Positions 2,886 through 28,454 of a DNA stretch of 64,000 nt are shown one piece after another; the first letter of the stretch is position 1, and the number at the start of each line of letters is the position of its first letter. The notes under the pieces were generated by a model. It had not been told where the DNA came from. It saw only the letters and a list, made by a program, of their open reading frames with translations, and made no database searches. The DNA is from Phycisphaerae bacterium (GTDB taxonomy: Bacteria > Planctomycetota > Phycisphaerae > UBA1845 > Fen-1342). The position numbers were made by a program, and so were the translations under genes. The DNA lies in contig JASFQK010000011.1 in the NCBI GenBank assembly GCA_050115495.1, positions 94,490-158,489 of the forward strand. The letters run 5' to 3'.

Positions 2886-3302
2886 TTATGACGCGGCGTC
2901 TGCTTTGCCCAGCAGCTCGGCCACCTTCGCCACCAGGGCTTTCGGCGGAATCGGCTTGTCGAAATACGCATCCACGCCCATCGCCTTCAGGTCTTCCGGC
3001 CGGCGAGGGTGGAAATCGAGCCCGCACTGGCTCGAGACGGCGGTGACGATGATGATCGGCAGGCTGGCCAGGGCCGGTTCCTCGCGAACTCGCCGCGATA
3101 GCGAGAACCCCGAATCGAGATTGCTCATCATCAGGTCGGTGATCAGCAGGGCAGGGGGCTGGCGGTGGATGCGCTCCCAGGCTTCCTCCGGATCGGTGCA
3201 GCATTCCACGCGATAGCCCTGCGGCTCGAGGATGTGCCGGTTGATCTCGAGGAAGTCGATGTCGTCGTCGACGAGCAGGATCAGAGGGGCTTCTGCGGAC
3301 AT
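2886..3302 (-). CDS. Single-domain response regulator (receiver)
   Basis: LLVDDD, ITDLMM (phospho-Asp), IIVTAV, FDKP; start trimmed to the ATG of MSAEAP. Confidence 0.9.
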   Translation of the reverse strand: MSAEAPLILLVDDDIDFLEINRHILEPQGYRVECCTDPEEAWERIHRQPPALLITDLMMSNLDSGFSLSRRVREEPALASLPIIIVTAVSSQCGLDFHPRRPEDLKAMGVDAYFDKPIPPKALVAKVAELLGKADAAS

Positions 3303-3399
3303 CCCTGGAGTCTCCTTCCGCCGGCGGCCGCAGCCGACGGGGCGCCGCCGCATGAGGGCGACGGCGACCCGCGGCCGGCCGGCCAACTCCTGACCGAGG

Positions 3400-5172
3400 T
3401 TAGACCCGATTGCGGGCCGAGTACTTCGTGTGCAGGAGGTGATGCGACCGCTCGCCGAGCGGCTTGCCGAGATACTTCTCGTAGATCTCCTTGATCGCCG
3501 GGTTATCGTGCGACTTGCGCAGCTCCTTACCCTCATCCTCGCGGTAGATGGCGTCGATGCGCGCCTGGCGCACGCTGTTGTCGGTCATGCGCGGCTGTCC
3601 GCCGCCACCGATGCAGCCGCCCGGGCAGGTCATGATCTCGACGAAGTGATACTCCGCCTCGCCCTTGCGGATGCGCTCGATGACCTTGCGGGCGTTGCCC
3701 AGCCCGTGGGCCACCGCGACCTTCAGCGTCACACCTTCGAGGAACTTCCACTCCGGCAGAGCACCGGTGATCTTGGCCGAAGCCTCCTTCACGCCTTCGA
3801 GGCTCTCGATCGGCGCGACGTGCAGGTTCTCAAACGGCAGCGGCTTGCCAGTGACGATTTCCCAGGCCGTACGCAGGGCCGCTTCCATCACGCCGCCGGT
3901 GTTGGCGAAGATGTCCGCCGCACCGGAGGACAAGCCGAGCGGGGCGTCCATCTCTTCGTCCGGCAGCGCCGGGAAATTGATCCCGGCCTGCTTGATCATG
4001 CGGCCGAGCTCCCGCGTGGTCAGCACGGCGTCGACGTCGCGCACGCCGCTGTCGTTCATCTCCGGCCGCTCGCACTCGTACTTCTTCGCCGTGCACGGCA
4101 TCACCGACACGACGAAGATGTCCTCGGGCTTCTTGCCGATCTGCTCGGCGTAGTACGTCTTGGCCACCGCTCCGAACATCTGCTGCGGCGACTTGCACGT
4201 CGACACGTTGTCCAGCATGTCCGGGTAGAAGTGCTCGATGTACTTGATCCAGCCCGGCGAGCAGCTCGTGAACTGCGGCAGGGCGACCGGCTTCTTGTCG
4301 ACCAGGGCCTGCTTGAGCCGCATGAGCAGCTCCGTGCCCTCTTCCATGATGGTCAGGTCGGCGGTGAAGTTCGTGTCGAACACGCCGTCGAACCCGAGCC
4401 GCCGCAGCGCGGCCGTCATCTTCCCGGTCACCAGCGTGCCCGGCGGATAGGCGAAGCACTCGCCCAGCGCCGCCCGGATGGCCGGCGCCGTCTGCACGAC
4501 CACGTGCTTGTTCGGGTCGTCCAGCGCGTCCCAGACGGTGCGGATATCGTCCTTCTCGCTGATGGCTCCGACGGGGCACACCGCGGCGCACTGCCCGCAC
4601 TGCACGCAGACGACGTCGCTCAGGTCCTGGCAGAACGCCGGTCCGATGACCGTGTCAAAGCCGCGGTTCTGCGCGAAGATCGCGCCGACGCCCTGCACCT
4701 CGCCGCAGACGGTCACGCACCGCCGGCAGAAGATGCACTTGCCGGCGTCGCGCGTCAGCCCGGCGGTGCTGAAGTCCAGCATCCGCTTGTTGCGCTCACC
4801 TTCATACGGGATGTCCTGGATGCCCAGTTCCCGAGCTACCGCCTGCAACTCGCAGTCTTCGCTGCGGGCGCAGGTCTGGCAGTCGCCGTTGTGCTCGGAC
4901 AGCAGCAGCTCGACGACCGTCCGCCGGGCTTCGCGCACGCGGCGGCTGTTCGTCTTGACTTTCATGCCCTCAGTCGCCGGCGCGGTGCACGAGGCCACGA
5001 GCGAGCGGGCCCCTTCGACCTCCACCGTGCACACGCGGCAGGCACCGATGGCCTGCACGTCTTTCAGGTAGCACAGCGTGGGAATGTGCACCCCGGCCTG
5101 CTGGGCGGCCTGGAGGACCGTCGCCCCTTGGGGCACCTCCACGGGTACGTTGTCAATCGTCAGTTTCGGCAT
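3400..5172 (-). CDS. hydA: [FeFe]-hydrogenase catalytic subunit, group A multimeric type (HydA/HndD-like), copy 1
   Basis: N-terminal 2Fe-2S, His-ligated and 2x4Fe-4S motifs; H-cluster motifs FTSCSPGW, MPCTAKKYE, EIMTCPGGCIGGGGQP; C-terminal SHHLLHT. Confidence 0.95.
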   Translation of the reverse strand: MPKLTIDNVPVEVPQGATVLQAAQQAGVHIPTLCYLKDVQAIGACRVCTVEVEGARSLVASCTAPATEGMKVKTNSRRVREARRTVVELLLSEHNGDCQTCARSEDCELQAVARELGIQDIPYEGERNKRMLDFSTAGLTRDAGKCIFCRRCVTVCGEVQGVGAIFAQNRGFDTVIGPAFCQDLSDVVCVQCGQCAAVCPVGAISEKDDIRTVWDALDDPNKHVVVQTAPAIRAALGECFAYPPGTLVTGKMTAALRRLGFDGVFDTNFTADLTIMEEGTELLMRLKQALVDKKPVALPQFTSCSPGWIKYIEHFYPDMLDNVSTCKSPQQMFGAVAKTYYAEQIGKKPEDIFVVSVMPCTAKKYECERPEMNDSGVRDVDAVLTTRELGRMIKQAGINFPALPDEEMDAPLGLSSGAADIFANTGGVMEAALRTAWEIVTGKPLPFENLHVAPIESLEGVKEASAKITGALPEWKFLEGVTLKVAVAHGLGNARKVIERIRKGEAEYHFVEIMTCPGGCIGGGGQPRMTDNSVRQARIDAIYREDEGKELRKSHDNPAIKEIYEKYLGKPLGERSHHLLHTKYSARNRV

Positions 5173-5194: not shown

Positions 5195-8100
5195 TTAGTC
5201 CTGGTGGCAGTCGTGGCCGAAGTCGCAGCGCAGACAGCGATGCGCCTCGCGCACCGCCACCGTCTCCGCCCACGGCAGCTCGACTTCCTGGAAGTTGTTC
5301 TTTCGCTTATTCACGGGGATCGTCCGCATCTTCGCCCGGGCGTACTCGACCGGCTCGGCGTCCGGATCGAAGGTCGTGTCCGCGGGCTTCGTTTCACGCC
5401 AGAAGGCGTGCTCGGCACCGGTCAGGGTCTTGTCGATCGACACCGCCGCCTTCTCGCCGGCACCGATCGCCGCCACCACCGACCACGGTCCCATGACCGC
5501 GTCGCCGCCGGCGTAGATCCAGTCCACGGACGTCTTGCAGGTAACCGGGTCGGCCTGGATGAAGCCGCCCGCGTTCATCGCCAGCTTCGTGCCGTCCAGC
5601 ATCTCGCCCGTGTCGAGCTTCTGCCCGATCGCCGCGATGACCTGGTCGGCCTCGACGACGAAGTCCTCTTCGCTGCTGCCCACCGGACGCCGGCGGCCGC
5701 TGCGGTCGAACTCGCCCAGGACCATGTGCCGGCACTTCACGCCCGTCACGCGGCCCTTCTTGCCGACCAGCTCCAGCGGAGCCACCAGCACGGCGATGCG
5801 CACGCCCTCGTGCTCGGCCTCGTCCACCTCTTCGGCGTAGGCGGGCATTTCCGCACGCGTCCGCCGGTACAGGATCGTGACCGATTCGGCGCCGAGCCGC
5901 TGGGCGGTGCGGGCGGCGTCGATGGCCGCGTTGCCGCCGCCGATCACCACCACGTTCTTGCCGACGGGGACGCTACCGCGGATGTTGTATTGCCGCAGGA
6001 AGGCCAGGGCGTCGACGACGCCTTCCTGGTCTTCACCGGTAATGCCCAACTGCGTGCCGCGCGGGGCGCCGACGGCGACGTATACCGCCTCGTAGCCCTC
6101 ATCGCGCAGACTCTGGAGCGTGAAGTCGCGGCCGAGCCGCATGTTCGTCTCGATATCGACGCCCAGCCGCTCGATCATACGAATCTCGCGGGCGAGCTCT
6201 TCACGCGGCAGCCGGTACGCCGGAATGGCCTGCACCAGCATGCCACCCGGTCGCGGTTCGGCTTCGAGCACCTTCGGCCGATAGCCGAGTCGCGCCAGGA
6301 AGTACGCACAGGACAGGCCGGCCGGACCGGCTCCGATCACCGCAATCTTGCGGCCGGCGTTCTTCTCGCTCTCGCGCACCTCGGGCAACTGCACCGTGAC
6401 TTCCTGCTCGGCCATGAAGCGCTTCAGGGCGCGGATGGCCACCGCCTCGTCCAGCGAGCCGCGGCGGCACTTGTCCTCGCACGTGTGGAAGCACACGCGG
6501 GCACAGACCGACGCGAACGGGTTGCGGTTGCGGTGCAGGGACAGGGCCTCGGCGTAGCGCTTCTCGCCGATGAGCGAGACGAACCCGGGCACATCCACAC
6601 TGGCCGGGCAGGCGCTCTGGCAGGGGGCCCGCGTCAGGGCCGCGCAGACGCCGGCAGGGCAGTGCTTGTCGCGGATGTGCGCTTCGTACTCGTCGCGGAA
6701 GTAGCGGATCGTCGAGAGCACCGGGTTGGGGGCCGTCTGGCCCAGACCGCAGAGCGAGGCGTCCTTGATGACGTTGCCCAGCTCGATCAGCCTCTCGATG
6801 TCGCCTTCCTCGCCGTGCCCCTCGCAGATGCGGGTCACGATCTCCAGCATGCGCTTGGTGCCGACGCGGCACGGCGGGCACTTGCCGCACGATTCGTCCT
6901 GGACGAAATCCAGGAAGAAGCGGGCCACGTCCACCATGCACGTGTCCTCGTCCATCACGATCAGGCCGCCCGAGCCCATGATCGCGCCGAGCTCGTTCAG
7001 CGACTCGTAATCGACCGGGACGTTCAGATGCTCTTTCGGGATGCAGCCGCCCGAAGGACCGCCCATCTGGGCCGCCTTGAAGCGCTTGCCGCCCGGGATG
7101 CCGCCGCCGATATCGTAGATGATCTCGCCCAGCGGCATGCCGATGGGCACCTCGACTAGGCCCGTGTTGTTCACGGCGCCGGCGAGGGCGAAGACCTTCG
7201 TGCCGCGGCTCTTCTCGGTGCCGTACGAGGCGAACCAGTCGGCGCCCTTCTGAATGATCGGGGCGACGTTGGCGAACGTCTCGACGTTGTTCAGGCAGCT
7301 CGGCTTGCCCCACAGACCCTGCTGGGCCGGGAAGGGCGGTCGCGGACGCGGTTCGCCGCGGTTGCCCTCGATCGACGTCATCAGCGCGGTTTCTTCGCCG
7401 CAGACGAACGCCCCGGAGCCCATGCGGACCTCGATGTCGAAGTCGAAGCCGCGGCTCATGATGTTCTTGCCCAGCAGCCCGTACTCGCGGGCCTGCTCGA
7501 GTGCTTTCTTGAAGCGCTCCACGGCCAGCGGGTACTCGGCCCGGATGTACGCGTAACCCTGGCTCGCGCCGATGGCGTAGCCGGCGATGGCCATGCCCTC
7601 GATCACGCTGTGCGGGTCGCCTTCGAGGACGCTGCGGTCCATGAAGGCCCCGGGGTCACCTTCGTCACCGTTGCACAGGATGTACTTCACGTCACCCGGC
7701 GACTTCCGCGTAAACTCCCACTTCAGGCCCGTCAGGAAGCCGGCCCCGCCGCGGCCGCGCAGACCGGACTTCTTCATCTCGGCGATGACCTGCTCCGGCG
7801 TCATGTCCGCCAGCGCCTTGCCCAGCGCCTGGTAGCCGTCGCGGGCGATGTATTCTTCGATCTTCAGCGGGTCGATCACGCCGCAGTTACGCAGTACGAT
7901 CTTCACCTGCTTCTGGAAGAAGCCGATCTCGTGCAGCCCGGGCACCGTCTGGCCGGCGATCGTCTTGTGCACCAGCCGCTCGACCACGCGGCCCTTCAGC
8001 AGGTGTTCTTCGACGATCTCCGCCGCGTCGTCCGGACGCAGCCCCTGGTAGAACACGCCGTCGGGATAGACGACGGCCACCGGCCCCGCGGCACATGGCC

Positions 8101-8248
8101 CCAGGCAGCCGGATTCGATGATCATGATTTCTTCGTCGAGCCCCTGGCGTTTGATCGCCGTCCGCAGGGCCTCGCCGACCTCCAGGGCCCCGGAGGCGAT
8201 GCAGCCGCCGCCCGTGCAGAGGAGGATGTGCGTTCTGATATTACTCAT
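5195..8248 (-). CDS. HydB/NuoF-like FMN-NADH subunit fused to a GltD/NfnB-like FAD/NADP(H) oxidoreductase module
   Basis: GLRGRGGAGF, NGDEGDPGAFMDR, GGPSGGC, ESCGKCPPCR, CPAGVC; then APCQSACP, CARVCFHTCEDKC, IGAGPAGL, IGGGNAAID, YRRT, IYAGGD, RCLRCD. Confidence 0.9.
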   Translation of the reverse strand: MSNIRTHILLCTGGGCIASGALEVGEALRTAIKRQGLDEEIMIIESGCLGPCAAGPVAVVYPDGVFYQGLRPDDAAEIVEEHLLKGRVVERLVHKTIAGQTVPGLHEIGFFQKQVKIVLRNCGVIDPLKIEEYIARDGYQALGKALADMTPEQVIAEMKKSGLRGRGGAGFLTGLKWEFTRKSPGDVKYILCNGDEGDPGAFMDRSVLEGDPHSVIEGMAIAGYAIGASQGYAYIRAEYPLAVERFKKALEQAREYGLLGKNIMSRGFDFDIEVRMGSGAFVCGEETALMTSIEGNRGEPRPRPPFPAQQGLWGKPSCLNNVETFANVAPIIQKGADWFASYGTEKSRGTKVFALAGAVNNTGLVEVPIGMPLGEIIYDIGGGIPGGKRFKAAQMGGPSGGCIPKEHLNVPVDYESLNELGAIMGSGGLIVMDEDTCMVDVARFFLDFVQDESCGKCPPCRVGTKRMLEIVTRICEGHGEEGDIERLIELGNVIKDASLCGLGQTAPNPVLSTIRYFRDEYEAHIRDKHCPAGVCAALTRAPCQSACPASVDVPGFVSLIGEKRYAEALSLHRNRNPFASVCARVCFHTCEDKCRRGSLDEAVAIRALKRFMAEQEVTVQLPEVRESEKNAGRKIAVIGAGPAGLSCAYFLARLGYRPKVLEAEPRPGGMLVQAIPAYRLPREELAREIRMIERLGVDIETNMRLGRDFTLQSLRDEGYEAVYVAVGAPRGTQLGITGEDQEGVVDALAFLRQYNIRGSVPVGKNVVVIGGGNAAIDAARTAQRLGAESVTILYRRTRAEMPAYAEEVDEAEHEGVRIAVLVAPLELVGKKGRVTGVKCRHMVLGEFDRSGRRRPVGSSEEDFVVEADQVIAAIGQKLDTGEMLDGTKLAMNAGGFIQADPVTCKTSVDWIYAGGDAVMGPWSVVAAIGAGEKAAVSIDKTLTGAEHAFWRETKPADTTFDPDAEPVEYARAKMRTIPVNKRKNNFQEVELPWAETVAVREAHRCLRCDFGHDCHQD

Positions 8249-8273: not shown

Positions 8274-8645
8274 TCAGCTCTTGATCAGGTATTCCACGAC
8301 CGGCCGGCCGCGCACCACGTGCTCCCGCACGATCTCACCGATCTTGTTCTTGTCCAGCTTGCCGTAACGGAAGCTGCCGCCGGCGTTGTCCGTCAGCGTC
8401 AGCATCGGCTCCTGGTCGCACAGCCCCGCACAGCCGCTTTGCTGCACTTGCACGTTGTTCGCCTGCACCGCGGTCAGGGCGTTCATCAGCGACGTCATGA
8501 TGTCACGCGCGCCGGCGGCGATGCCGCAGGTGCCCATGTGCACCGTGACCCGCATGTCCTTCTGTCCCGTCCGCAGATCCAGTTGTCCCTGGACCTCCTG
8601 CTGCATGGCCTTCAGGTCCGCCGGGCTGTTGATGCGCTTCGCCAT
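8274..8645 (-). CDS. Thioredoxin-like [2Fe-2S] ferredoxin subunit (HndB/HydD-like)
   Basis: HMGTCGIAAGA and SGCAGLCDQEP motifs; start trimmed to MAKRINS. Confidence 0.85.
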   Translation of the reverse strand: MAKRINSPADLKAMQQEVQGQLDLRTGQKDMRVTVHMGTCGIAAGARDIMTSLMNALTAVQANNVQVQQSGCAGLCDQEPMLTLTDNAGGSFRYGKLDKNKIGEIVREHVVRGRPVVEYLIKS

Positions 8646-8647
8646 GG

Positions 8648-9187
8648 CTACGCACTCCTCTTCTGTTCGGCCGCGTCGCCGGTGCGGTAGGGATCGAGCA
8701 CGGCGTCGAGACGGTTGGGCTTCACGCGGTGATGCACGTCGTCGTCGATCATGATGGCCGGGGCCAGGCCGCACGCCCCGAAGCAGCGCGCCACTTCGAG
8801 CGTGAACAGCCGGTCGGCGGTCGTCTCACCGACGTCGATGTTCAGCTTCTGCTTGAGCGTGTCCAGCACGCGCTTCCCGCCGCGCACGTAGCAGGCCGTT
8901 CCCAGGCACACCCGCACCAGGTGCTTGCCCCGCGGCTTCGTCGAGAAGAACGAGTAGAAGCTCACCACGCCCGCGACCTCGCTGTAGGACTTGCCCAGTC
9001 CCAGCGCGATCCGCTTCAGAGCCACCTCGGGCAGGTACCCGAAGATGCTCTGGGCGATCTGTAGCACGGGGATGAGCGCTCCCGGCTTGTCGCGATACTC
9101 CTCCAGAACCGTGTCCAGCCGGCTGAGCAGCTCCTCCTCGGAGACCTCCTCGCCACACTGGCACTGCACTTTCTCGTCTTGCGCCAT
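8648..9187 (-). CDS. hydC: NuoE-like [2Fe-2S] subunit (HydC/HndA), copy 1
   Basis: LIPVLQIAQ..GYL, VVSFYSFF, VCLGTACYVRG, RCFGACGLAP. Confidence 0.9.
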   Translation of the reverse strand: MAQDEKVQCQCGEEVSEEELLSRLDTVLEEYRDKPGALIPVLQIAQSIFGYLPEVALKRIALGLGKSYSEVAGVVSFYSFFSTKPRGKHLVRVCLGTACYVRGGKRVLDTLKQKLNIDVGETTADRLFTLEVARCFGACGLAPAIMIDDDVHHRVKPNRLDAVLDPYRTGDAAEQKRSA

Positions 9188-9259: not shown

Positions 9260-9826
9260 TCAGCGGAGGACGTCCGTCGCCGCCAGCGCCGCTTCGATCA
9301 ACCGTCCAACCTCTTGCGCGACGGCCAGTCCGCCGCGCTCCCGGCCGATCGTCTCGGCCAGTTCCTTCACGTTTATCTGCCACTCCTGCTCGCCTGCGGC
9401 CTGGCCATTCTGGCCGCCCACCCGCAGGCGGAAGCGGAAGTCTATCTCCGGGCTCGTGCACACCACAGACGACAGCGTCGCCGCCAGGTCACCCAGCGGT
9501 GTCCGGTCCACGTGCGTCAGGCCCAACTCCGCCCGGACCGCCGTCCCGCCCAGGTCCGACCGTCCGATCGTCAGGTCGCCGCCGCTGGCCGCCGCCGCTG
9601 CCCGAAACAGCGCCAGTCCCAGCCCCGTTCGTTTGCCCTGTTTCGTCGTGTAGAACGGGTCGAGGGCATCATCCGGCGACACCTTCAGCCCGCGACCGTC
9701 GTCCTCGATCTCGATCCGCAGCCGGTCTTCCCGCGGCAGTGCCTCGACCGTGACCGTGATCACCTTCGCTTCCGCCCGTAGCGAGTTCTCGATCAGGTCC
9801 AGGATGTGCAGCGACAGCTCACGCAA
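9260..9826 (-). CDS. GHKL/HATPase_c ATP-binding protein (kinase-like) of hydrogenase operons
   Basis: (M)RELSLHILDLIENSLRA, DDGRG, DPFYTTK, GLGLAL, HVDRTPLGD; TTG start overlaps the PHP gene stop. Confidence 0.8.
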   Translation of the reverse strand: MRELSLHILDLIENSLRAEAKVITVTVEALPREDRLRIEIEDDGRGLKVSPDDALDPFYTTKQGKRTGLGLALFRAAAAASGGDLTIGRSDLGGTAVRAELGLTHVDRTPLGDLAATLSSVVCTSPEIDFRFRLRVGGQNGQAAGEQEWQINVKELAETIGRERGGLAVAQEVGRLIEAALAATDVLR

Positions 9827-10562
9827 CGCGCACCTCCCGTTTGCCGTTGCCACGCATCGCCTGCACCAGCTCCGCGAACGTCGGCGCCTCCATCACCAGC
9901 GTCGTCTGCACGCTGCCGATGTCGCCGAGGTAGTGGCTGTCCGACGACGCCACCACCGCCAGTCCCAATGCCGCCACCGCCTCCGGCAGGGCTTTCGCCG
10001 CTCCGCCGGCCGGCGTGAAGACCTCGATGGCGTCAAAGCCGGCGTCCGCCGGGAAGACGCCCAGTTGACTCAACACGCTGAACGACGGCCGGTTCACGTG
10101 AGCCGCCAGCGCCAGCCCGTCGTGCTCGTGGATCAGCCGGACCGCCGCCGGCAGATCCAGCCCCGACGCCACCGCCAGCAGCCGCTTCTCGCGGCCGACG
10201 GCTCGCCCCGCGGCGTCCATCAGCACCTGCGACCCAAACTGCTGCTCATCGCCGGCGCTCGCTACCGGCAGCGTGCCGAGCACCTCGCTCGCCGCGGCCT
10301 CCGCCGACTTCACGTCGGGGAAGAGCCCTAGCACGTGGCATTCCTCGACCGTCGTGATTTCCATACCGGCGACGACCGACAACCGCTCGCCCGCCGCCTC
10401 CTGCGTCGCCGCCGTGTTACCGGCCGCGTTGTGGTCGCAGATGGCGATCATGGCCAACCCGCGGTCTACGGCAGCCTGCACGATCGCCGGCGGAGTCATC
10501 TCCTCCGACGCACAGGGCGACAGCGCCGTGTGGATGTGCAGATCGGCCGCGAACGTCTTCAC
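9819..10562 (-). CDS. PHP-domain phosphoesterase
   Basis: DLHIHT, AICDHN, GMEITT, AAHVNR, SSDSHY metal-binding motifs. Confidence 0.9.
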   Translation of the reverse strand: MKTFAADLHIHTALSPCASEEMTPPAIVQAAVDRGLAMIAICDHNAAGNTAATQEAAGERLSVVAGMEITTVEECHVLGLFPDVKSAEAAASEVLGTLPVASAGDEQQFGSQVLMDAAGRAVGREKRLLAVASGLDLPAAVRLIHEHDGLALAAHVNRPSFSVLSQLGVFPADAGFDAIEVFTPAGGAAKALPEAVAALGLAVVASSDSHYLGDIGSVQTTLVMEAPTFAELVQAMRGNGKREVRVA

Positions 10563-10909
10563 CGGCGAGGTCCTCGCAACCCGAGCTCGTACATCTGGCC
10601 CGCGATGTCGAACGCGGTATCGTCCGATACGAACAGCGCGATGCCTTCCTCGATCGCCTTGGCCCGCACAGCGTCGTCCGGTTTGCGACCCATGGCGAAG
10701 ACCACCGCGGTCAGACCCGCGTGCAGGGCGACCGCGATCACGTTCAGGTGCACCTGAACCGTCACCAGCACCCCGTCCGCCGGCGCGTGCGCCAGCACGT
10801 CACTCAGCAGATCCGACGCATACCCGCCGGCGACGGTCTTCGTGTCGACCGCCACCTCGGGTGTCAAGGTCTGCCAGTCGAGCCGTTCGGCCAGCATTTT
10901 CAGGTTCAT
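10559..10909 (-). CDS. DRTGG-domain protein
   Basis: GGYASDLLSDVLA motif typical of hydrogenase-linked DRTGG proteins; 4-bp overlaps with both neighbours. Confidence 0.8.
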   Translation of the reverse strand: MNLKMLAERLDWQTLTPEVAVDTKTVAGGYASDLLSDVLAHAPADGVLVTVQVHLNVIAVALHAGLTAVVFAMGRKPDDAVRAKAIEEGIALFVSDDTAFDIAGQMYELGLRGPRR

Positions 10910-12468
10910 TCGGCCTTCTCCTTCTTCCGCTCACCGCGTGGACACGCATCGCGGTCCGCCCGCCCCAGCACGATGTCTTCCGCCAGAGCGGCACACGTCG
11001 GCGCCCCGCACTGCCCACAATCGTCCCCGGGCAGACTGCGGGCCAGCCGGTCGATCCGGGCGAGCTTCTGCACCGCCTTGGCCATGTCGTCGTCCAGCCG
11101 CAAACCCGGTCGCGGCGTACGCTCAGCCGTTCGTCGTTGGGCCTTTGCCTCTCCGTCCGGCGTTGCCGCGGCATGATGCCACCGGCGGGAACCGAGGTAC
11201 GCATCGGCGGCCAGCAGCGGCGATCCGAAGCAGCCTTCGTCGCACGCCCACGGTTCGATAATCTCGACGTCTTCGGCCAGACCGTCTTCGACGTCGTCCA
11301 GGACGCGGAGCACGTGTTGCAGGCCGGTGACCCGCATCACGCCGTTCTCGTCCGTCGTCGGCGTGGCCGCCACGTACGCCGCCGCCGGCTGCTCCTCGGT
11401 ATGCTTGCCCGTCAGCCGCGGCATCACGGCTGCCCGCAGCGCCGCGGGCGAAACGACCTCCACCCCATCTCCGACCACCAGTGTCCGCTGAGCCGGGCAG
11501 CTCACCACGCAGACGACGCGCTCGCCCTTGAGCGTCGCCCGCAACGCCACCACCGCCGTATCAAACGGCGCTACGTGCGGCAGCAATCCCGGGAACCGCG
11601 TCTCAATCAGGTTGACCACGGCCGGACACGCCGGCGAGATCACCGGCCAACCCGCGGCCTCGGTCTTCGCGTACTCGACGACCGCCTGCCGCAGGGCCAC
11701 TTCCCAGCCGGCGGTAACGCGCACGTCCCGGAAACCCAGTTGCCGAATTTCGTTCAGCACGGCCGCTGGGTCAGCATCAGCGCCAAACTGCGCCAGACTC
11801 TCGGCAGAAACCACCAAAACGGCGTCTTTCGCGGTCGGCAACGCGTCCCCCAACCCCGTCACGCCCATCGTTCCCGTCGGACACCCGGCGATGCACGCCG
11901 TGCAGTCGATGCACAGGTAGTCCAGCACGTCCGGTCGCCCGCGGAACACCCGTACCGCCTGCGTCGGACAGGCGTGCAGGCAGCGCAGACTTTGCCGGCA
12001 ACGCTCGGGCGCCACGTGCAGCGAATGCCGCCCGACGCCGTACAGGGCAGGGGGGCGAAGCGACAGGCCGAAGCACAGCTGCGTGCCTTTGCCCGGCGTC
12101 GATTCGATCGTGAACGAATCCGCACTCTTTCGGATATTGGGCAGACCCATGCCCGCCCCGAAACCGAGCTGCCGCGCCTCGGCGCTGGCCGTCGAGAAGC
12201 CTTCGCGCAGGGCTTGCTCGACGTTCGGGATGCCGGGCCCCGTGTCCGCCACCTCGACCTCGAGATGTCCGTTATCGAGCACGGCGCTCAGGTGGCCGCG
12301 ATGGGCGTGGATGACGACGTTCATCTCGGCTTCGTACGCCGCGATCATCGCCCGCCGGAGCACCGCTGGATCTGCGCCGACCCGCTTGAGCTGCTCCTTG
12401 AGCGCACGAGATGCGCGGCCCCCGCGCTCATAGTCGCCGCCCTCAATCTCGTAGCGGAACGTCGGCAT
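10906..12468 (-). CDS. RsbT-like Ser/Thr kinase (anti-sigma type) fused to Fe-S/degenerate [FeFe]-hydrogenase domains
   Basis: N-terminal AYEAEMNVVIHA, DTGPGI, GFSTA, GAGMGLPNI; then CRQSLRCLHACP, CIDCTACIAGCP, ISPACPAVV, VSCPAQ, ACDEGCFGSP, DCGQCGAPTC...CP. Confidence 0.8.
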   Translation of the reverse strand: MPTFRYEIEGGDYERGGRASRALKEQLKRVGADPAVLRRAMIAAYEAEMNVVIHAHRGHLSAVLDNGHLEVEVADTGPGIPNVEQALREGFSTASAEARQLGFGAGMGLPNIRKSADSFTIESTPGKGTQLCFGLSLRPPALYGVGRHSLHVAPERCRQSLRCLHACPTQAVRVFRGRPDVLDYLCIDCTACIAGCPTGTMGVTGLGDALPTAKDAVLVVSAESLAQFGADADPAAVLNEIRQLGFRDVRVTAGWEVALRQAVVEYAKTEAAGWPVISPACPAVVNLIETRFPGLLPHVAPFDTAVVALRATLKGERVVCVVSCPAQRTLVVGDGVEVVSPAALRAAVMPRLTGKHTEEQPAAAYVAATPTTDENGVMRVTGLQHVLRVLDDVEDGLAEDVEIIEPWACDEGCFGSPLLAADAYLGSRRWHHAAATPDGEAKAQRRTAERTPRPGLRLDDDMAKAVQKLARIDRLARSLPGDDCGQCGAPTCAALAEDIVLGRADRDACPRGERKKEKAE

Positions 12469-12483: not shown

Positions 12484-12819
12484 TTACGCTCCAAGGCACT
12501 TGTAAAGGCGACCGCACGTCTCGAAAAGCCCGCACGGCGAAACCAGCACCTGCGTGCCATGTTCGCTGGCGGCGGCCAGCATCGCCTCATCCGGCTGCTG
12601 CCCGTTGACCAGGCAGATCCCCGGAATGTCCATCAGCTCGGCGACGCGCAGCAGGTGACTGCTCGCCAGGTTGGTCACCAGCAGCGTGTGTTCGCCGGCC
12701 GCCGCCAGCAGGTCGCTGATGCGGTCGCCCGCGTAGACCTGGTCGATGCTGACCCGCGCCCCGTTGGGCTGGCCATGCACCCGGGCTCCGATTCTGACTG
12801 CCAATTCTTCGAGCTTCAT
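12484..12819 (-). CDS. DRTGG-domain protein
   Basis: VYAGDRISDLLA, LLVTNL, GLFETCGRLY; start trimmed to MKLEEL. Confidence 0.75.
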   Translation of the reverse strand: MKLEELAVRIGARVHGQPNGARVSIDQVYAGDRISDLLAAAGEHTLLVTNLASSHLLRVAELMDIPGICLVNGQQPDEAMLAAASEHGTQVLVSPCGLFETCGRLYKCLGA

Positions 12820-13060: not shown

Positions 13061-13082
13061 CACTGTTACGATCGTCACAGTG
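13061..13082. promoter_or_regulatory. Candidate Rex operator upstream of hydrogenase operon 1
   Basis: 22-bp near-perfect palindrome cactgttacgatcgtcacagtg with core TGTTA-N6-TCACA. Confidence 0.6.
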
Positions 13083-19803: not shown

Positions 19804-20944
19804 CGTTCATTCCCGGGGGGCTGTAGTCCCGCTGGAGGATCACGGTGAACGTGCTGCCTACCTCGGGCTCGCTCTGCACGTCCACGTCGCCGCCGTACAT
19901 GAGGGCCAGCTTCTTCACCAGCGACAGGCCCAGACCGCTGCCGGGGATGTTGCGTGTGCGGGCGTTGCTGATGCGCACGAAGTCGTGGAAGAGGCGGGCG
20001 GCTTCCTGAGGCGAGAGGCCGATGCCGGTGTCGCTCACTTCGATGGTGATGCGCTGCTCGTCGCCGGTGACGCGGATGTTCGCCTTGCCGCCTTTGCGGT
20101 TGTACTTGACGGCGTTGGTCAGGAGATTGTTGAAGATGATCTCGATTTCGCCGCGATCGGCCCGCAGGTTCAGGTCCGCCGGGCAATCGACGTGCAGCTC
20201 GATTTCCTGGTCGGCGGCGGCGGGGCGGACGGTCTCGATGGCCGACTCGGCCACCTCGTGCAGGCTGACCGTGGTGAGCGTGCGGCCCTTTTCGCCGGAC
20301 TCGATACGGGTCATGTCCAGCAGGTCGAAGATGAGCTTGCGCATGCCCTCGCCGCGAAGCAGGCAGCGCTCGACCACCTGGTCGTAGGCGCTGAGGTCGG
20401 TGCCGAGGGCGCGGTCGCGGATGATGTTGAGGTAGCCCTCGATGGCAGCCAGTGGGGCCTTCAACTCGTGGCCGAGAACGGAGATGAACTCGAAGCGGAC
20501 GCGGCGTTTCTCGGCGGCCAGCTTGCGGGCTTGTCGCTGCACCACGAGATGAGCGGCGGCCTTGCGGATAGTCTCGCGCAGCTCCTCGGGCGTGAACGGC
20601 TTGGCCAGGAAATCGAACGCGCCGGACTTCGTCGCGCGGATGGCGGTTTCCAGCGTGGCGAACGCCGTGATCATGATGGTGAGCACGTCTGTTTCGCGTT
20701 CGTGGAGGCGTTCGAGGACGTCGACGCCGGTGATGCCGCTCATCTTGTGGTCGAGCAGCATGATGTCCGGGGCGGCGGCGGCGATCTTCTGGAGCGCTTC
20801 CTCGCCGCTGCCGGCCGGCGTCACCTCGAAGCGGACCTCGCCCTCGACGTCGGGCAGGTGCACGTGGAAGGTTTGCAGGGCGCGGCCCACCGCGTGACGC
20901 ATGCCGGCTTCATCGTCCACGACCAGTACGTGCAGCGTGTCCAT
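19763..20944 (-). CDS. Hybrid response regulator-histidine kinase (REC-HisKA-HATPase)
   Basis: LVVDDE, LLDHKM, FLAKPF; GHELKAPL, NLLTNAVKYN, DTGIGL, GSGLGL; start trimmed to MDTLH. Confidence 0.9.
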   Translation of the reverse strand: MDTLHVLVVDDEAGMRHAVGRALQTFHVHLPDVEGEVRFEVTPAGSGEEALQKIAAAAPDIMLLDHKMSGITGVDVLERLHERETDVLTIMITAFATLETAIRATKSGAFDFLAKPFTPEELRETIRKAAAHLVVQRQARKLAAEKRRVRFEFISVLGHELKAPLAAIEGYLNIIRDRALGTDLSAYDQVVERCLLRGEGMRKLIFDLLDMTRIESGEKGRTLTTVSLHEVAESAIETVRPAAADQEIELHVDCPADLNLRADRGEIEIIFNNLLTNAVKYNRKGGKANIRVTGDEQRITIEVSDTGIGLSPQEAARLFHDFVRISNARTRNIPGSGLGLSLVKKLALMYGGDVDVQSEPEVGSTFTVILQRDYSPPGMNDATGRGPELASRN

Positions 20945-20946: not shown

Positions 20947-21336
20947 TCATTCGTCCTTGAGCAGACGCTGGATCTCGCGCTGGAGCTGCTCGAAGCGCAC
21001 CGGTTTGGCCAGCAGCCCATCCGCCTTGATCCAGGCCCGTTCCTCGTCCGTCTCGGCGTCGAAGCTCAAACCCGTTGCCGTGGCCACCGCGGTGACCATG
21101 ATGACCGGCAGGTCTGGGTGATCCCGCTTGATCTGGTAGCACAGCGTGAAGCCGGCGTCGGGCTGCTCGAGCATCAGGTCCACCACCACGATGTCGGGCT
21201 TCCGGCGGCCCAGGAGCTCGCGGGCGGCCGTGGCCGTCTCGGCGAGCAGCACCTTGTAGTCGGCGGCCTCAAGCTGGATGCGCATCTGCGTTTGAAAATC
21301 CACGTCGTCGTCGACAACCAGTACCGTATGTGCCAT
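20947..21336 (-). CDS. Single-domain response regulator
   Basis: LVVDDD, VVDLML, MVTAV, LAKP. Confidence 0.9.
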   Translation of the reverse strand: MAHTVLVVDDDVDFQTQMRIQLEAADYKVLLAETATAARELLGRRKPDIVVVDLMLEQPDAGFTLCYQIKRDHPDLPVIMVTAVATATGLSFDAETDEERAWIKADGLLAKPVRFEQLQREIQRLLKDE

Positions 21337-21401: not shown

Positions 21402-23435
<2,034 letters not shown>

Positions 23436-23524: not shown

Positions 23525-25246
23525 TTAACGCACCACCTCGCGGGCGTGGTAATGCGTGTGCAGCAATTCGTGGCTCTTCTCGCCGAGCGGCTCGCCGAGA
23601 TACTCGGCGTACAGCCGCTGCACCGACGCGTTCTGGTGGGCGGTGCGCAGCGGAGCGTCACGGTCGATTTTGTACAGGGCGTCCATGCGGGCTCGCAGCG
23701 CGGCCTGATCGGCACCCACCGGCTGACCGCCGCCGGCGATGCAGCCGCCCGGACAGGTCATCACCTCGACGAAGTGCAGGTTGTGCTCGTCGTCGCGAAT
23801 CTGTTCGAGCAGCCGCCCGGCGTTGGCCAGACCGCTGACGACGGCCACGTTCAGCTTGACGTCGCCGACCTTCACGGTGGCCTGCTTCACGCCGTTGAGT
23901 CCGCGCAGAGCCTTGAGCTTCAACACGGGCAGCTCGTCCCCGGTAAGCAGATGGTAGGCCGTGCGTACGGCGGCCTCCATCACGCCGCCGGTGGCGCCGA
24001 AGAGCTTGCCGGCGGAACTGCGTTCGCCGAAGGGATTATCGGCCGTCTCGGGCTTGAGTTGCCGCAGATCGAGGCTGCGCTGCCGGATGATGCGGGCCAG
24101 TTCGCGCGTGGTCAGGACGGCGTCGACATCGGCCAGACCGTGCCGCGTCAGCTCCGTGCGGCCGGCTTCGAACTTCTTCGCCGTACAGGGCATCACCGCG
24201 ACGCTGTAGATCTTCGCGGGGTCGAGGCCCTGCTGCTCGGCGTAGAACGTCTTGACCAGGGCACCGAGCATCTGCTGCGGGCTCTTGCAGGTGGAGAGGT
24301 TGCCCACGAAGTCGGGGGCGAATTCCTCGACGTACTTGATCCAGCCGGGCGAGCAGCTCGTCAGCAGTGGCAGACGGCCGCCGGTCTTGATGCGGTAGAT
24401 CAGCTCGGACGCCTCTTCCATCACGGTCAGGTCGGCGGCGAACGAGGTCTCAAAGACGCGCTCGAAGCCGAGCCGTCGCAGGGCCGCCGTCAGCCGCCCG
24501 CAGATGTCCGTGCCGGGCTTGAGGCCGAATTCCTCGGCGAGACTGACGGAGACGGCGGGGGCGTGCTGAATCACGACGTGCTGATCGGGATGGTTGAGAG
24601 CTTCGAGCACTTCCTTGATGTGGCTCTGCTCGGTGAGGGCCCCGGTCGGGCAGGCCATGATGCACTGGCCGCAGTTGATGCAGCTCGAGACGTTCAGGCC
24701 CTGATCGAAGGCGGTGCCGACGTAGGTCTGGCTGCCGCGCTTGAGGAAGTCGATGGCGGCCACGCCCTGGATTTCCTCGCAGACGCGGACGCACTTGCCG
24801 CAGAGGATGCACTTCGACGGGTCGCGCACGATCGAGGCGCTGGACAGGTCGGCGTGCCGTTCGGGCTTGTTGCCGAAGTAGCGGCGCTGCCGGACGCCGA
24901 GCTCGGCGGCCAGTGACTGGAGCGTGCAGTTGTTGTTGCGGATGCAGTAGAGGCAGTCGTCGGGGTGGTTGGCCAGCAGCAGCTCGACGATCGTCTTGCG
25001 GGCCCGTACGGCGCGCGGCGAGTGCGTCTGCACCTTCATGCCGGGGGCCACGGGGAACGCGCAGCTCGGCACGAGGTTGCGCTGCCCTTCGATCTCGACG
25101 ACGCACAGCCGGCAGGCACCGGTGGGGGTGAGGTTTTCCAGGTTGCACAGGGTGGGAACGTTGATGCCCGCCCGCCGCATGGCCGTCAGCAGCATCTCGC
25201 CGGGCCGGGCCTGGATCGGACGGTTGTTGACTTCGATGGTGATCAC
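23525..25246 (-). CDS. hydA: [FeFe]-hydrogenase catalytic subunit HydA, copy 2
   Basis: LTSCSPGW, MPCTAKKFE, EVMTCPGGCIAGGGQP, SHELLHT; same N-terminal Fe-S domains as copy 1. Confidence 0.95.
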   Translation of the reverse strand: MITIEVNNRPIQARPGEMLLTAMRRAGINVPTLCNLENLTPTGACRLCVVEIEGQRNLVPSCAFPVAPGMKVQTHSPRAVRARKTIVELLLANHPDDCLYCIRNNNCTLQSLAAELGVRQRRYFGNKPERHADLSSASIVRDPSKCILCGKCVRVCEEIQGVAAIDFLKRGSQTYVGTAFDQGLNVSSCINCGQCIMACPTGALTEQSHIKEVLEALNHPDQHVVIQHAPAVSVSLAEEFGLKPGTDICGRLTAALRRLGFERVFETSFAADLTVMEEASELIYRIKTGGRLPLLTSCSPGWIKYVEEFAPDFVGNLSTCKSPQQMLGALVKTFYAEQQGLDPAKIYSVAVMPCTAKKFEAGRTELTRHGLADVDAVLTTRELARIIRQRSLDLRQLKPETADNPFGERSSAGKLFGATGGVMEAAVRTAYHLLTGDELPVLKLKALRGLNGVKQATVKVGDVKLNVAVVSGLANAGRLLEQIRDDEHNLHFVEVMTCPGGCIAGGGQPVGADQAALRARMDALYKIDRDAPLRTAHQNASVQRLYAEYLGEPLGEKSHELLHTHYHAREVVR

Positions 25247-25262: not shown

Positions 25263-27299
25263 TTATTCGGCGATGACGGCGCCCAGGCGGCAGGCCTGCA
25301 CGCAGGAGCCGCACCCGAGGCATTTCTCTTCGACGATGTAATGCGGGCTCTTGGGGGCGCCCATGATCGCTTCCGCAGGGCAGGCCTTGGCGCAGACGGT
25401 GCACCCGCGGCACTTGTCCGGGTCGATGCGGTAATGCAGGAGTTCGGTGCAGACGCCCGCCGGGCACTTACGCTCGAAGATGTGCGCTTCGTACTCGTCA
25501 CGGAACCAGCGCAGCGTGCTGAGCACGGGGTTCGGGGCCGACTGGCCGAGACCGCAGAGGCTGGTGTCCTTGATGACCTCCGCCAGACGCGTCAGGTACA
25601 TCACGCCCTTGAATCGCTCCAGGGCGTGATAGCCGGTCTCGCTCCGGCGGGACCGGGTGATGGCCTGGAGGATCTCGAGCATGTGCCGCGTGCCTTCGCG
25701 GCAGGGGATGCACTTGCCGCAGCTCTCGCGCTGGATGAAGTCCATGAAGAACTTGGCCACGTCGACCATGCAGTTGTCTTCATCCATGACGACCAGGCCG
25801 CCGGAGCCCATCATGGCCCCGACGGTCTTCAGCGACTCGTAGTCGATCTCGATGTCGAGGTGCGAGGTGGGGATGCAGCCGCCGGAGGGGCCGCCGATCT
25901 GCGCCGCCTTGAAGGCCTTGCCGTCAGCCGGGCCGCCGCCGATGTCGAGGACGATCTGGCGAACCGACGTCCCCATGGCGACTTCGACTAGGCCGGTGCG
26001 CTGGACCTTGCCGGACAGGGCGAAGACCTTCGTGCCCTTGCTGCTGGCGGTGCCGACGGCGGCGAAGGCCTCGGCGCCCATGCCGACCAGGGCCGGCAGG
26101 TTGGCCAGCGTCTCGACGTTGTTGATGACGGTCGGCTTGGCGAACAGGCCGCTGACGGCGGGGAAAGGGGGCCGTGGCCGGGGCATGCCCCGCCGGCCCT
26201 CGATGCTGTTGATCAGGGCGGTCTCTTCACCGCAGACGAACGCACCGGCACCCTGCTTGATGATGATGCGCAGGTTCGAGCCGCTGCCGAGGACGTTCTC
26301 GCCGAGCAGGCCGTAGTGCTCGGCCTGTTCGATGGCCCGTTCGAGCATGGCGATGGCGAGCGGATACTCGGCGCGGATGTAGACGTAAGCCTTGGTGGCG
26401 CCGATGGCGTAGGCGGCGATGCCGATGCCCTCGACGAGGCGATGCGGGTCACCCTCGATCACGGCGCGGTCCATGAATGCGCCGGGGTCGCCCTCGTCGG
26501 CGTTGCAGATCAGGTACTTCTGATAGCCAGGCGTGTTCAGGGCGATGCGCCACTTGCGGCCGGTCGGGAAACCGCCGCCGCCGCGACCACGCAGGCCGCT
26601 GGTCTCGACGATGTCGCACAGCTCGGTGCGGGTCATCTTGCGCAGGACGCGGGCGAAGGCCTGGTAGCCGCCGCGGGCGAGGTATTCGTCGATGCTGCGC
26701 GGGTCGATCAGGCCACAGTTGCGCAGGACCCAGCGGGTCTGCGGGCGGAAGAAGGGGTGCTCGTCGAGGTAGGGCACGTCGGCCCAGGGCTGGAGCACGT
26801 CGGTGCCCGCCTTGGCGTCGTCCACCGGCGGGGTGGGGTGGAACTGACCGATGACGCCTTCGGCCGGGACCTTGCCCGCCAGGAGGGCGTCGAGCACGTC
26901 GGGGACGCGGTCGGCCGTGACGCGCTCGCATGAGACGCGCGTGCGGCCGGGCAACTGCACGTCGAGCAGCGGTTCCGCCGAACACAGGCCGATGCAGCCG
27001 ACCTCAACGACGTCGGCCTGGACCTTCCGCTGCTTGAGATAGTCGCCGACGGCCTCGAGCGTTCGGCCGGCGCCGGCACCGAGGCCGCACGTTCCGGCCC
27101 CGATGAAGATTGCGGGCCGGCTGAGCACGTCGCGGCGCAGGCGGGTCATCTGCGTCCGCCAGGCCTTCCCCTCAGGACCGTGGCCATTCACGCGATGGCC
27201 GTTGTCCTGACACAATACATCGATCACCTGGTGTGGCCGCAGACCGCAGACGGCCGCGGCACCCTCGCTCGTTTCCAGAGCGCTTTCACTCGCTGGCAT
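25263..27299 (-). CDS. hydB: HydB/NuoF-like subunit with N-terminal Trx-like 2Fe-2S domain and C-terminal 2x[4Fe-4S] domain
   Basis: GTCGLGAGA/GCIGLC, GLRGRGGGGF, NADEGDPGAFMDR, GGPSGGC, ESCGKCIPCR, CPAGVC, CRGCTVCAKAC, CLGCGSCVQAC; start uncertain. Confidence 0.92.
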   Translation of the reverse strand: MPASESALETSEGAAAVCGLRPHQVIDVLCQDNGHRVNGHGPEGKAWRTQMTRLRRDVLSRPAIFIGAGTCGLGAGAGRTLEAVGDYLKQRKVQADVVEVGCIGLCSAEPLLDVQLPGRTRVSCERVTADRVPDVLDALLAGKVPAEGVIGQFHPTPPVDDAKAGTDVLQPWADVPYLDEHPFFRPQTRWVLRNCGLIDPRSIDEYLARGGYQAFARVLRKMTRTELCDIVETSGLRGRGGGGFPTGRKWRIALNTPGYQKYLICNADEGDPGAFMDRAVIEGDPHRLVEGIGIAAYAIGATKAYVYIRAEYPLAIAMLERAIEQAEHYGLLGENVLGSGSNLRIIIKQGAGAFVCGEETALINSIEGRRGMPRPRPPFPAVSGLFAKPTVINNVETLANLPALVGMGAEAFAAVGTASSKGTKVFALSGKVQRTGLVEVAMGTSVRQIVLDIGGGPADGKAFKAAQIGGPSGGCIPTSHLDIEIDYESLKTVGAMMGSGGLVVMDEDNCMVDVAKFFMDFIQRESCGKCIPCREGTRHMLEILQAITRSRRSETGYHALERFKGVMYLTRLAEVIKDTSLCGLGQSAPNPVLSTLRWFRDEYEAHIFERKCPAGVCTELLHYRIDPDKCRGCTVCAKACPAEAIMGAPKSPHYIVEEKCLGCGSCVQACRLGAVIAE

Positions 27300-27819
27300 G
27301 TTGTCCCTGCACTTCCTTGGACGGCTCGGCGGCAACTTTGCTTCGTGCCGCAGTGGCGGCCGGCTTGCCGTATTGCTTCAGAATGCGCTGCACGCTGTCC
27401 GGGGTGACCGCGGCATGGAAGTCGCCGTTGACCGTGATGACCGGCGACAGGCCGCAGGCTCCGATGCAGGCTACGACTTCGAGGCTGTACTTGCCGTCGC
27501 GCGTCGTCTGGCCCGGCTCGATCTTTAGGAGCTGCTGCGTCGCCTGGAGCACGGCGGCTGAGCCCTTCACGTGGCAGGCGGTGCCGCGGCAGACCTGGCA
27601 GTGCACCTGGCCGCGCGGCTGGAACCGGAACTGGTTGTAGAACGTGGCCACGCCGTAGACCTTGCTCACCGGCAGGTGCAGGCGCTGGCCGATCTGCTCC
27701 ATGGCCTCGCGCGACAGGTAGCCCTCGCGGTCCTGGACCGCCTGCAAGACGGGGATCAGGTGCTCGCGTCGCGCGTCGGGATACTGACTGAGGACGCTCT
27801 CGACTTCGGTGGATTTCAT
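27286..27819 (-). CDS. hydC: NuoE-like HydC subunit, copy 2
   Basis: LIPVLQ, VYGVATFYNQF, VCRGTACHVKG, ACIGACGLSP. Confidence 0.92.
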   Translation of the reverse strand: MKSTEVESVLSQYPDARREHLIPVLQAVQDREGYLSREAMEQIGQRLHLPVSKVYGVATFYNQFRFQPRGQVHCQVCRGTACHVKGSAAVLQATQQLLKIEPGQTTRDGKYSLEVVACIGACGLSPVITVNGDFHAAVTPDSVQRILKQYGKPAATAARSKVAAEPSKEVQGQHASE

Positions 27820-28454
27820 TCGCGGGACTCCGCAGGCTTCGCCGTCGGTCGCGTGAAGAACACCAGCTTTTCAAGCGAGGCGGCGATATCGACGTCTTCG
27901 ACGAACACGTCCGGCGGCACGTGCAGCCGGACGGGAGTGAAGTTCAACAGGCCGCGCACCCCGGCCCGGACGAGGCGGTCAGCCGTGTCCTGGGCGGCGT
28001 CGATGGGCACGGCCACGACGGCAACGGACACGGGGCCGGCGCGGAGGATGTCCTCCATTTCGCTGGCCGAGTAGCAGCGGCAACCGTCGATGATCCGCCC
28101 GACTTTCTCGGGCGCGACGTCGAAGGCGGCCACAACCGGCAGCTCGGGGTGAACGCGGCTGAGGTACTTGAGAATGGCTCGGCCGAGGTAGCCGAGGCCG
28201 ACGAGGACGATGGCTTCGTTGTCCGCCGGATCGAGCAGCTCGTCGATGCGGGCGATCAGGCCGGCGACGTCGTAGCCGCGGGCGGGACTGCCGGTGAAGC
28301 CGATGGTCATGAGGTCGCGGCGGACCAGTACCGGCGTAACGTTGTGAAGACTGGCCAGCTCATGGGAGTAGATGCGGGCCCGGCCCTGGTCGAGCCATCG
28401 GCGCAGGTGTCGACGGTAGGCACAGAGACGTTCGACAATTCGGACAGGAATCAT
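27816..28454 (-). CDS. rex: Redox-sensing transcriptional repressor Rex
   Basis: IVERLCAYRR, SHELA, VRRDL..IGFTG...GY, VGLGYLGRA, AAFD...KVG, GLLNFTPVRL. Confidence 0.92.
   Translation of the reverse strand: MIPVRIVERLCAYRRHLRRWLDQGRARIYSHELASLHNVTPVLVRRDLMTIGFTGSPARGYDVAGLIARIDELLDPADNEAIVLVGLGYLGRAILKYLSRVHPELPVVAAFDVAPEKVGRIIDGCRCYSASEMEDILRAGPVSVAVVAVPIDAAQDTADRLVRAGVRGLLNFTPVRLHVPPDVFVEDVDIAASLEKLVFFTRPTAKPAESRE

Follow-up and report, generated by a model that had tools for sequence, protein, structure and literature searches.

Whether two [FeFe]-hydrogenase operons and three types of sensor in one stretch of DNA act as a single switch was the question raised by a locus of a Phycisphaerae bacterium (assembly GCA_050115495.1, contig JASFQK010000011.1). 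The locus lies between positions 2886 and 28454 of the window, as we call the whole stretch of 64,000 nucleotides that was analysed. The initial annotation described an integrated system, in which NADH/NAD+ sensing by Rex, H2 sensing by a histidine kinase phosphorelay and Ser/Thr phosphorylation jointly select between two hydrogenases with different electron partners. All three sensor types were present, and motifs and HydB domains agreed with two catalytic group A3 hydrogenases that differ in their predicted partners. We nevertheless favour, with a probability of about 0.68, a reading in which two separately evolved hydrogenase operons lie beside the genome's only maturases, each under its own sensors, and do not form one switch. 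What speaks most against a two-way switch is the independent occurrence of the modules in other genomes, together with further [FeFe] enzymes in the same genome.

All 21 named genes were recovered from six-frame open reading frames (ORFs), their translations and Pfam and NCBIfam scans, on the minus strand and in the order first described, from the rex start at 28454 to the stop of the last response regulator at 2886. Operon 1 comprised rex, hydC1, hydB1, hydA1, a sensory hydrogenase fused to a histidine kinase (HydS-kinase), a response regulator, a receiver-kinase hybrid, hydE, hydG, aspA and hydF. Operon 2 comprised two DRTGG genes on either side of a kinase fused to an iron-sulfur hydrogenase-like domain (kinase-FeS), then a PHP-family gene, an ATPase gene, hydC2, hydD, a hydB2 fused to a GltD-like arm (HydB-GltD), hydA2 and a further response regulator. 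Rex, HydE, HydG, HydF, AspA and both HydA proteins (NF040763) passed their NCBIfam cut-offs. Intergenic spacing was below 100 bp except between aspA and hydF (1423 bp) and between hydF and the first DRTGG gene (402 bp), so that the block divides into two operon-like halves; the gene order held, and the block was not continuous. Long plus-strand ORFs such as 10273-13083 matched no Pfam family and were set aside as shadows. A planctomycete origin, proposed from the DNA alone, was borne out by PtsI: among the 120 matches listed, all seven organism-named homologs were Planctomycetota, four of them Phycisphaerae or Phycisphaerales.

Independent occurrence of the modules

We surveyed synteny in 301 evenly drawn genomes of the class, including the one under study. 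HydB-GltD was matched at E<=1e-240 in 59 genomes, 56 of which extended into the GltD arm; a full HydS-kinase was found in 42, kinase-FeS in 16 (nine full fusions) and hydF in 85. Both catalytic operons were linked in two genomes only, the present one (G000) and G023, a member of the same family but another genus, which carried the full set of 21 genes, identically ordered. Operon 1 occurred without operon 2 in G009, G254, G221, G058 and others, and operon 2 without operon 1 in G025, G286, G066 and G036, while in G039, G059, G060, G162 and G325 operon 1 had a GltD-fused HydB. The sensors travelled with single hydrogenases: in G028, rex, HydS-kinase, the kinase module, both relay genes and the maturases surrounded one GltD-type enzyme, and four Actinomycetota loci (L057, L060, L062 and L066) combined rex, the kinase module, one enzyme, a receiver and HydS-kinase. 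They also travelled with maturases, as HydS-kinase adjoined hydE and hydG in all five congeners tested, and by hand count hydF shared a contig with HydS-kinase in 26 of 42 genomes. The five congeners, in assemblies 84-93% complete, contained no HydB1 ortholog (best match 48-56%) and no match to Rex, the latter in a search without a positive control. In one relative (G286; L041:5248-9533), hydC was missing from operon 1, HydB was truncated and on a long branch, and HydA was divergent (51%); HydS-kinase and the maturases were conserved there, and the catalytic module is possibly degenerate.

The genome itself encoded four [FeFe] HydABC sets with one set of maturases (a single hydE, hydG and hydF), as well as a Hox-type [NiFe] enzyme. 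Contig C19 (L002:5769-13888) carried a second rex, hydC-hydB-hydA with an extra C-terminal 2Fe-2S domain, a HydS-PAS protein and a SpoIIE phosphatase in the sub-type IV layout. Contig C22 (L003:8127-12171) carried receiver-hydC-short hydB-hydA in the sub-type II layout, which is likely a non-bifurcating NADH-dependent enzyme. On contig C27 (L004:1095-7000), polyferredoxin-like genes were followed by a NuoE-NuoF fusion (943-aa open frame) and then by a HydA-N/GltD-like region from which ORF filtering yielded no single gene, either a Stn-like complex or a broken one. RnfC and a likely NfnAB pair were found, and no match to a haem-copper oxidase, in the genome at 92% completeness, which fits an anaerobic fermenter.

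In a quick tree of 78 HydB cores, HydB1 and HydB2 of the window grouped in different clades (SH-aLRT 96 and 99), and the sister of each was the corresponding G023 protein and not one from a congener. This points to two distinct operons that were joined, a pair that the window and G023 would have in common by descent or transfer. An origin of the two enzymes by tandem duplication was rejected, since HydA1 and HydA2 were 49% identical and the HydB cores lay in separate clades.

A chimeric assembly of two contigs might mimic such a union, and two features of the hydF/DRTGG junction would suit it. GC skew and third-codon-position skew change sign there (at about 13000) despite genes on a single strand, and repeats lie 1-2 kb away. 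The cluster recurs in G023 with the same order and junction, the hydF-DRTGG junction recurs in G002, G003, G004 and G006, both HydB cores are sister to those of G023 and GC content is uniform; a chimera is thus extremely improbable. The skew flip, absent from G023, may be the trace of a recent event that rearranged or replaced operon 2; dnaA was rejected as its cause, as it sits on contigs C1 and C3. The repeats form a dispersed non-coding, REP-like cluster (14498..15260) in the aspA-hydF gap; their inverted arms are imperfect (e.g., 14553-14594/14700-14741), and blastn matched them on over 40 further contigs of the genome and in none of the related loci then compared. The same gap held a DMP19-like gene on the plus strand (15352..15858; PF14300, 28.7 bits against a cut-off of 25), which was missing from the equivalent site in G023, where aspA and hydF were 32 bp apart without an insert.

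The two hydrogenases and their predicted electron partners

H-cluster motifs were intact in both catalytic subunits (TSCSPGW, MPCTAKK(F/Y)E and E(V/I)MTCPGGC), and both adjoined a NuoF-like HydB and a NuoE-like HydC, the rule that defines group A3 (PMC5037454). Operon 1 encoded hydC1 (27286..27819; NuoE-like [2Fe-2S], PF01257), hydB1 (25263..27302) and hydA1 (23525..25246; NF040763, 821 bits, P1-P3 intact). HydB1 had the FMN site, the AFM and GGPSG motifs, the B5 site and the C-terminal 2x[4Fe-4S] (B3/B4) domain by which bifurcating BfuB is recognised (PMC12018979). It thus kept the whole architecture of the bifurcating HydABC(D) of Acetobacterium woodii, Thermoanaerobacter kivui and Thermotoga maritima (7q4v, 8a6t and 7p5h), and HydABC1 is predicted to be a standard NADH and ferredoxin confurcating enzyme. 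The maturase genes hydE (18721..19803; TIGR03956), hydG (17289..18713; TIGR03955) and hydF (13222..14451; TIGR03918) each had one copy in the genome, and aspA (15875..17278; NF008909), an aspartate ammonia-lyase gene, lay between the latter two; all four were above cut-off.

Operon 2 encoded hydC2 (8648..9187; PF01257), hydD (8274..8645; a thioredoxin-like [2Fe-2S]-type subunit with a weak PF01257 match, found in relatives at 46-77%), the hydB2-GltD fusion (5195..8248) and hydA2 (3400..5172; NF040763, 897 bits, P1-P3 intact). The HydB2 core, with its FMN/NADH sites, had the same three bifurcating complexes as its top matches in both sequence and structure (51-62% identity), but lacked their C-terminal B3/B4 ferredoxin-like domain, at which ferredoxin binds (PMC12018979). 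In its place stood Fer4_20 and Pyr_redox_2, a 2x[4Fe-4S]/FAD/NADPH module. Judged from its sequence, HydABCD2 is not a canonical Bfu member, though its flavin core is intact. The NADH-site signatures A201, M203, F281, E286 and GGPSG and the B1/B5 ligands were invariant in 22 of 22 fused sequences, the exception among these signatures being F202, a Tyr in four. GGG(N/D).A and YRR, which we take to be NADPH-type motifs, were likewise invariant in the 22. The B2 cysteines were replaced by Gly in three of the 22 aligned fusions. A long-branch HydB-GltD clade (L034, L035 and L036) was followed by a HydA-like gene matching only the N-terminal 200 residues, whose product probably lacks an H-domain.

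Which partner the GltD arm serves depends on how its FAD is read. The arm's best matches were NfnA and StnC, and Lys609 of HydB2 aligned with K170 of StnC; this residue was Lys in all 22 fusions and Glu in NfnB/NfnL, including the NfnB of the same genome. The arm thus lacked the Glu ligand on the FAD-proximal [4Fe-4S] cluster that marks NfnB-type bifurcation, and the FAD of StnC does not bifurcate (PMC10482914). An approximately unbiased (AU) test rejected a single clade for 29 GltD-tailed cores (p-AU 5e-11; run on 50 of the 78 HydB cores, with three odd rows dropped and distant B3/B4 rows thinned), so GltD and B3/B4 tails have replaced each other repeatedly at one and the same junction. Together, the Stn-type lysine and the exchange with the ferredoxin-docking domain make coupling of H2 to NADH and NADPH possible. 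The simplest reading is that NADP(H) takes the place of ferredoxin on the low-potential branch, and HydABCD2 is likely to link H2 with NADH and NADPH and to do so independently of ferredoxin. Our reading of the locus could stand with other chemistry: the arm's FAD may be a second bifurcating centre that reduces ferredoxin, as suggested in PMC11406978, or the enzyme may simply be an NADPH-linked hydrogenase whose NADH site is idle. In structure matches, bifurcating NfnB/NfnL chains showed 36-40% identity with the module, and both [4Fe-4S] sites are kept. The Lys ligand shared with non-bifurcating StnC and NfnA speaks against a second centre, as does the Glu in the genome's own NfnB, and the invariant NADH signatures and B1/B5 ligands speak against an idle site; we hold these alternatives to be a real possibility, though short of even odds. 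With the Table 1 potentials of PMC9304861, the calculated H2 equilibria were 3 Pa for NADH, 145 Pa for NADH and NADPH, 7 kPa for NADPH and 15 kPa for NADH and ferredoxin.

Probable separate sensors for the two operons

Rex (27816..28454; NF003995, 191 bits against a cut-off of 126), an NADH/NAD+-sensing repressor, was preceded by a Rex-type operator on the minus strand (28579..28596). A matrix trained without the window and scored over the whole genome gave this site 20.3 bits, rank 2 of 5.97 million positions; a weaker second box lay at 28562-28579 (minus strand). The seed of the box search was what we take to be the Rex consensus, and a TGTGA-N6-TCACA-like box with at most two core mismatches occurred in 16 of 16 rex-upstream regions, often in tandem and 17 bp apart. 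Rex control of operon 1 is well supported. A possible box before operon 2 (13063..13080, minus strand; 15.6 bits, genome rank 9) was at shuffled-background level and not conserved. Among 21 DRTGG-upstream regions, scores above 14 bits were confined to the window and L064 (14.1), with a best score of 7.1 in G023, and one region had a site with at most one core mismatch. Rex-like sites above 16 bits numbered eight in the 5.97-Mb genome and five in 3.29 Mb of shuffled DNA, and inspection by eye revealed no obvious redox genes near the seven other top genomic sites, so that these sites did not define a Rex regulon across the genome. Support for Rex control of operon 2 is weak.

HydS-kinase (21402..23435) combined a group C-type sensory hydrogenase with HisKA/HATPase domains in its Pfam architecture. 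The motifs T(T/S)CP, GPC.AK, E.L.C.GC and AHEVNNP were conserved in 16 sequences, and the H-cluster Cys, P2 Lys and H-box His were invariant in all of them. Four Cys and the P2 Lys, lack of the group A proton-transfer Cys and the fused kinase place it in group C, as the type listed in HydDB as group C1 "histidine kinase-linked", a family whose role was given as undetermined (PMC5037454). Downstream lay a single-domain response regulator (20947..21336; PF00072 only) and a receiver-histidine kinase hybrid without a sensor domain (19763..20944; PF00072, PF00512 and PF02518), and a paralog of the former closed operon 2 (2886..3302; PF00072 only). The start of the latter gene is most likely at 3302 (138 aa) instead of at 3536. 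A homologous receiver adjoined HydS-kinase in the four Actinomycetota loci. Pfam found no DNA-binding output domain in either receiver or in the hybrid kinase, so that the output of the relay would lie outside the locus or be post-translational.

Operon 2 opened with a module of a different kind. The first DRTGG protein (12484..12819), a candidate kinase substrate, had D32 and S35 as its only invariant residues in 81 of 81 homologs, and S35 lay near the start of helix 34-39 in a structure model. It was followed by the kinase-FeS gene (10906..12468), a second DRTGG gene (10559..10909; weak PF07085, DLLS motif at >=90% in 68 homologs), a PHP-family phosphoesterase (9819..10562; PF02811 and PF13263) and a stand-alone HATPase_c protein of uncertain start (9260..9853; PF02518). 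Individually, both DRTGG calls fell under the Pfam cut-off (E 0.018 and 0.04). A profile of the 81 upstream-DRTGG homologs matched AF_1212 (2ioj; E 8e-6) and a stretch of a Mn-dependent pyrophosphatase (3l2b; E 4e-5), both of which we assume to be DRTGG domains. The GHKL motifs of the SpoIIAB/RsbW-like Ser/Thr kinase (E46, N50, D75 and the G-boxes) were invariant in 81 sequences, and its profile matched SpoIIAB and RsbW. Pfam found no STAS-domain substrate among the cluster proteins; the DRTGG proteins flank the kinase instead.

The hydrogenase-like part of kinase-FeS had the group D (M2e) architecture of two [4Fe-4S] clusters, an H-domain and a C-terminal Cx2Cx4Cx16C. The P2 lysine holds the di-iron site in [FeFe] hydrogenases; in 20 of 20 intact fusions the four H-cluster Cys were kept and this Lys was replaced, by Gln in 19 and Glu in one. 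It was present in 64 of 78 rows of a wider alignment, mostly from loci in which kinase and FeS were separate genes; among 80 named loci, 70 had two genes, eight a fusion and two a partial arrangement. The ferredoxin Cys at position 160 was Ser in the window and in six of 20 fusions. H2 sensing by the fused protein is doubtful, and the kinase, DRTGG and PHP proteins may instead form a serine switch that senses Fe-S redox state.

We propose a working model in which activities, directions and regulatory targets are predictions from genes, domains, motifs, distribution and phylogeny. Rex would repress operon 1 until NADH rises, and derepression would yield the NADH and ferredoxin confurcating HydABC and the maturases for all four [FeFe] enzymes. 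Through the stand-alone receivers and the receiver-kinase, HydS-kinase would signal H2 to a target beyond the locus, or it would act post-translationally. Operon 2 would provide a HydABCD with a Stn-type NADPH module at the ferredoxin-docking end, coupling H2 to NADH and NADPH, and its kinase-FeS/DRTGG/PHP set would act as a switch by serine phosphorylation, with Fe-S clusters as sensors of redox state and not of H2. A bolder version, speculative and in our judgement unlikely to hold in full, makes operon 2 a ferredoxin-free bifurcating hydrogenase (2 H2 + NAD+ + NADP+ -> NADH + NADPH) switched post-translationally: a di-iron-less hydrogenase homolog would sense Fe-S redox state, its fused kinase would phosphorylate Ser35 of the DRTGG protein and PHP would reverse this. 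With the Rex-gated NADH/ferredoxin enzyme beside it, a single maturase hub would let the cell operate in two H2 regimes (about 15 kPa and about 0.15 kPa).

Several observations pull the other way from two separately controlled operons. The hydF-DRTGG junction was kept in several congeners and in G023 (G002, G003, G004, G006 and G023), so the adjacency is more than a single case, and a degree of co-regulation is possible. The 15.6-bit Rex-like site of the window lies directly before operon 2. The Actinomycetota loci stop at the 10-kb flank, beyond which a second hydrogenase may follow HydS-kinase, and most relatives are fragmented and 84-99% complete, so that adjacency and presence are undercounted. 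As for the electron partners, an AlphaFold model of HydB-GltD (pTM 0.58) does not place the NADPH arm. Joint selection by Rex, the H2 phosphorelay and Ser/Thr phosphorylation would draw on this junction, on conservation of the full cluster in G023, on the Rex-like sites before both operons and on the calculated equilibria, which differ enough between NADH with ferredoxin and NADH with NADPH for selection by H2 level to be useful. Against it stand the linkage of both enzymes in two genomes alone, the triple sensor set around one enzyme in G028, congeners that keep the relay without a match to HydB1 or Rex, a relay without DNA-binding output, an operon-2 Rex site that is absent from G023 and at chance level genome-wide, and two more [FeFe] enzymes with a second Rex elsewhere in the genome. 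We consider joint selection improbable; the locus is probably a pair of known modules that are neighbours.

Known relatives and meaning

Both layouts have been catalogued from genomes. In sub-type I of the group A3 BfuABC(D) enzymes (Zheng & Huang 2024, PMC11406978), B3/B4 is replaced by a DPD_II 2x[4Fe-4S] and FAD/NAD(P) module and HydD is present, as in operon 2; Planctomycetota homologs are named, and several BfuABC sub-types per genome are reported. The DRTGG/kinase-FeS/PHP/HATPase module upstream sets operon 2 apart, as it is not described for sub-type I in the text available to us. Where that work proposes a possible second bifurcation centre, our residue comparison points to a non-bifurcating Stn-type FAD. 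Operon 1 matches the layout of sub-type V, with hydC-hydB-hydA followed by a histidine kinase (BfuT) that carries a sensory hydrogenase (PMC11406978), and extends it with rex, a receiver, a receiver-kinase and hydE-hydG-aspA-hydF. Both assignments rest on layout and domains. In the Stn (Nfn-Bfu) transhydrogenases (8oh5, 9bov and 9n5u), StnC/NfnA bears the same GltD-like NADPH/FAD module with a Lys-ligated proximal cluster. There it sits on the A-type subunit, feeds a mid-potential path and leaves B3/B4 in place, whereas in the window HydB bears it where B3/B4 would be, and a hydrogenase serves as the A subunit.

The putative sensory hydrogenase TamHydS of group D (M2e) (PMC8163306) has the N-terminal 2x[4Fe-4S], H-domain and C-terminal Cx2Cx4Cx16C of kinase-FeS, and its gene, next to one for a kinase-like ATPase, precedes those of a bifurcating hydrogenase; the window protein differs in its fusion to the kinase and in having Gln for the P2 lysine. 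In Kiritimatiellia hydABC arrays (bioRxiv 10.64898/2026.10.06.756941), a fused hydB occurs in 163 genomes, 132 of them with both forms, and in two cultured species the fused form adjoins the unfused operon. HydD is absent there, and the available text reports no stack of Rex, histidine kinase and serine kinase. Our literature search, which also included PMC7483475, PMC5707799, PMC11929135, PMC8924675 and PMC11376134 in part, found no description of the whole arrangement or of the DRTGG/kinase module; most subscription literature and the supplements of PMC11406978, which may list such clusters, were outside its scope. The initial statement that no such system was characterised in Planctomycetota was too strong as regards the layouts, and it stood in that no biochemically characterised member was found in the literature searched.

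Elsewhere in the window, upstream housekeeping genes (28820-37770) included a serine acetyltransferase-like gene, RNase E/G with a long acidic N-terminus, DUF2344, PtsI, PTS IIA, HPF and a LacI regulator. Long plus-strand ORFs of lower GC (61-64%) at 49665-62355, with choice-of-anchor Q and POMP-repeat matches, probably encode acquired surface proteins.

The supercluster is a new combination of catalogued modules, conserved in one other genome. New here are the conserved Rex boxes before operon 1, the Stn-type lysine, the repeated tail exchange, the lack of the P2 lysine in the fused kinases and a serine that is invariant among the upstream DRTGG proteins. As a rare juxtaposition of common modules, the supercluster as a whole changes little. 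Its host is likely uncultured. The value of the locus is as a small system in which to study with which partners the widespread HydB-GltD hydrogenase exchanges electrons, what output histidine-kinase-linked sensory hydrogenases have and how group D sensors pass on their signal; on this last point, the fusion to the kinase and the invariant serine of the DRTGG protein make a concrete prediction.

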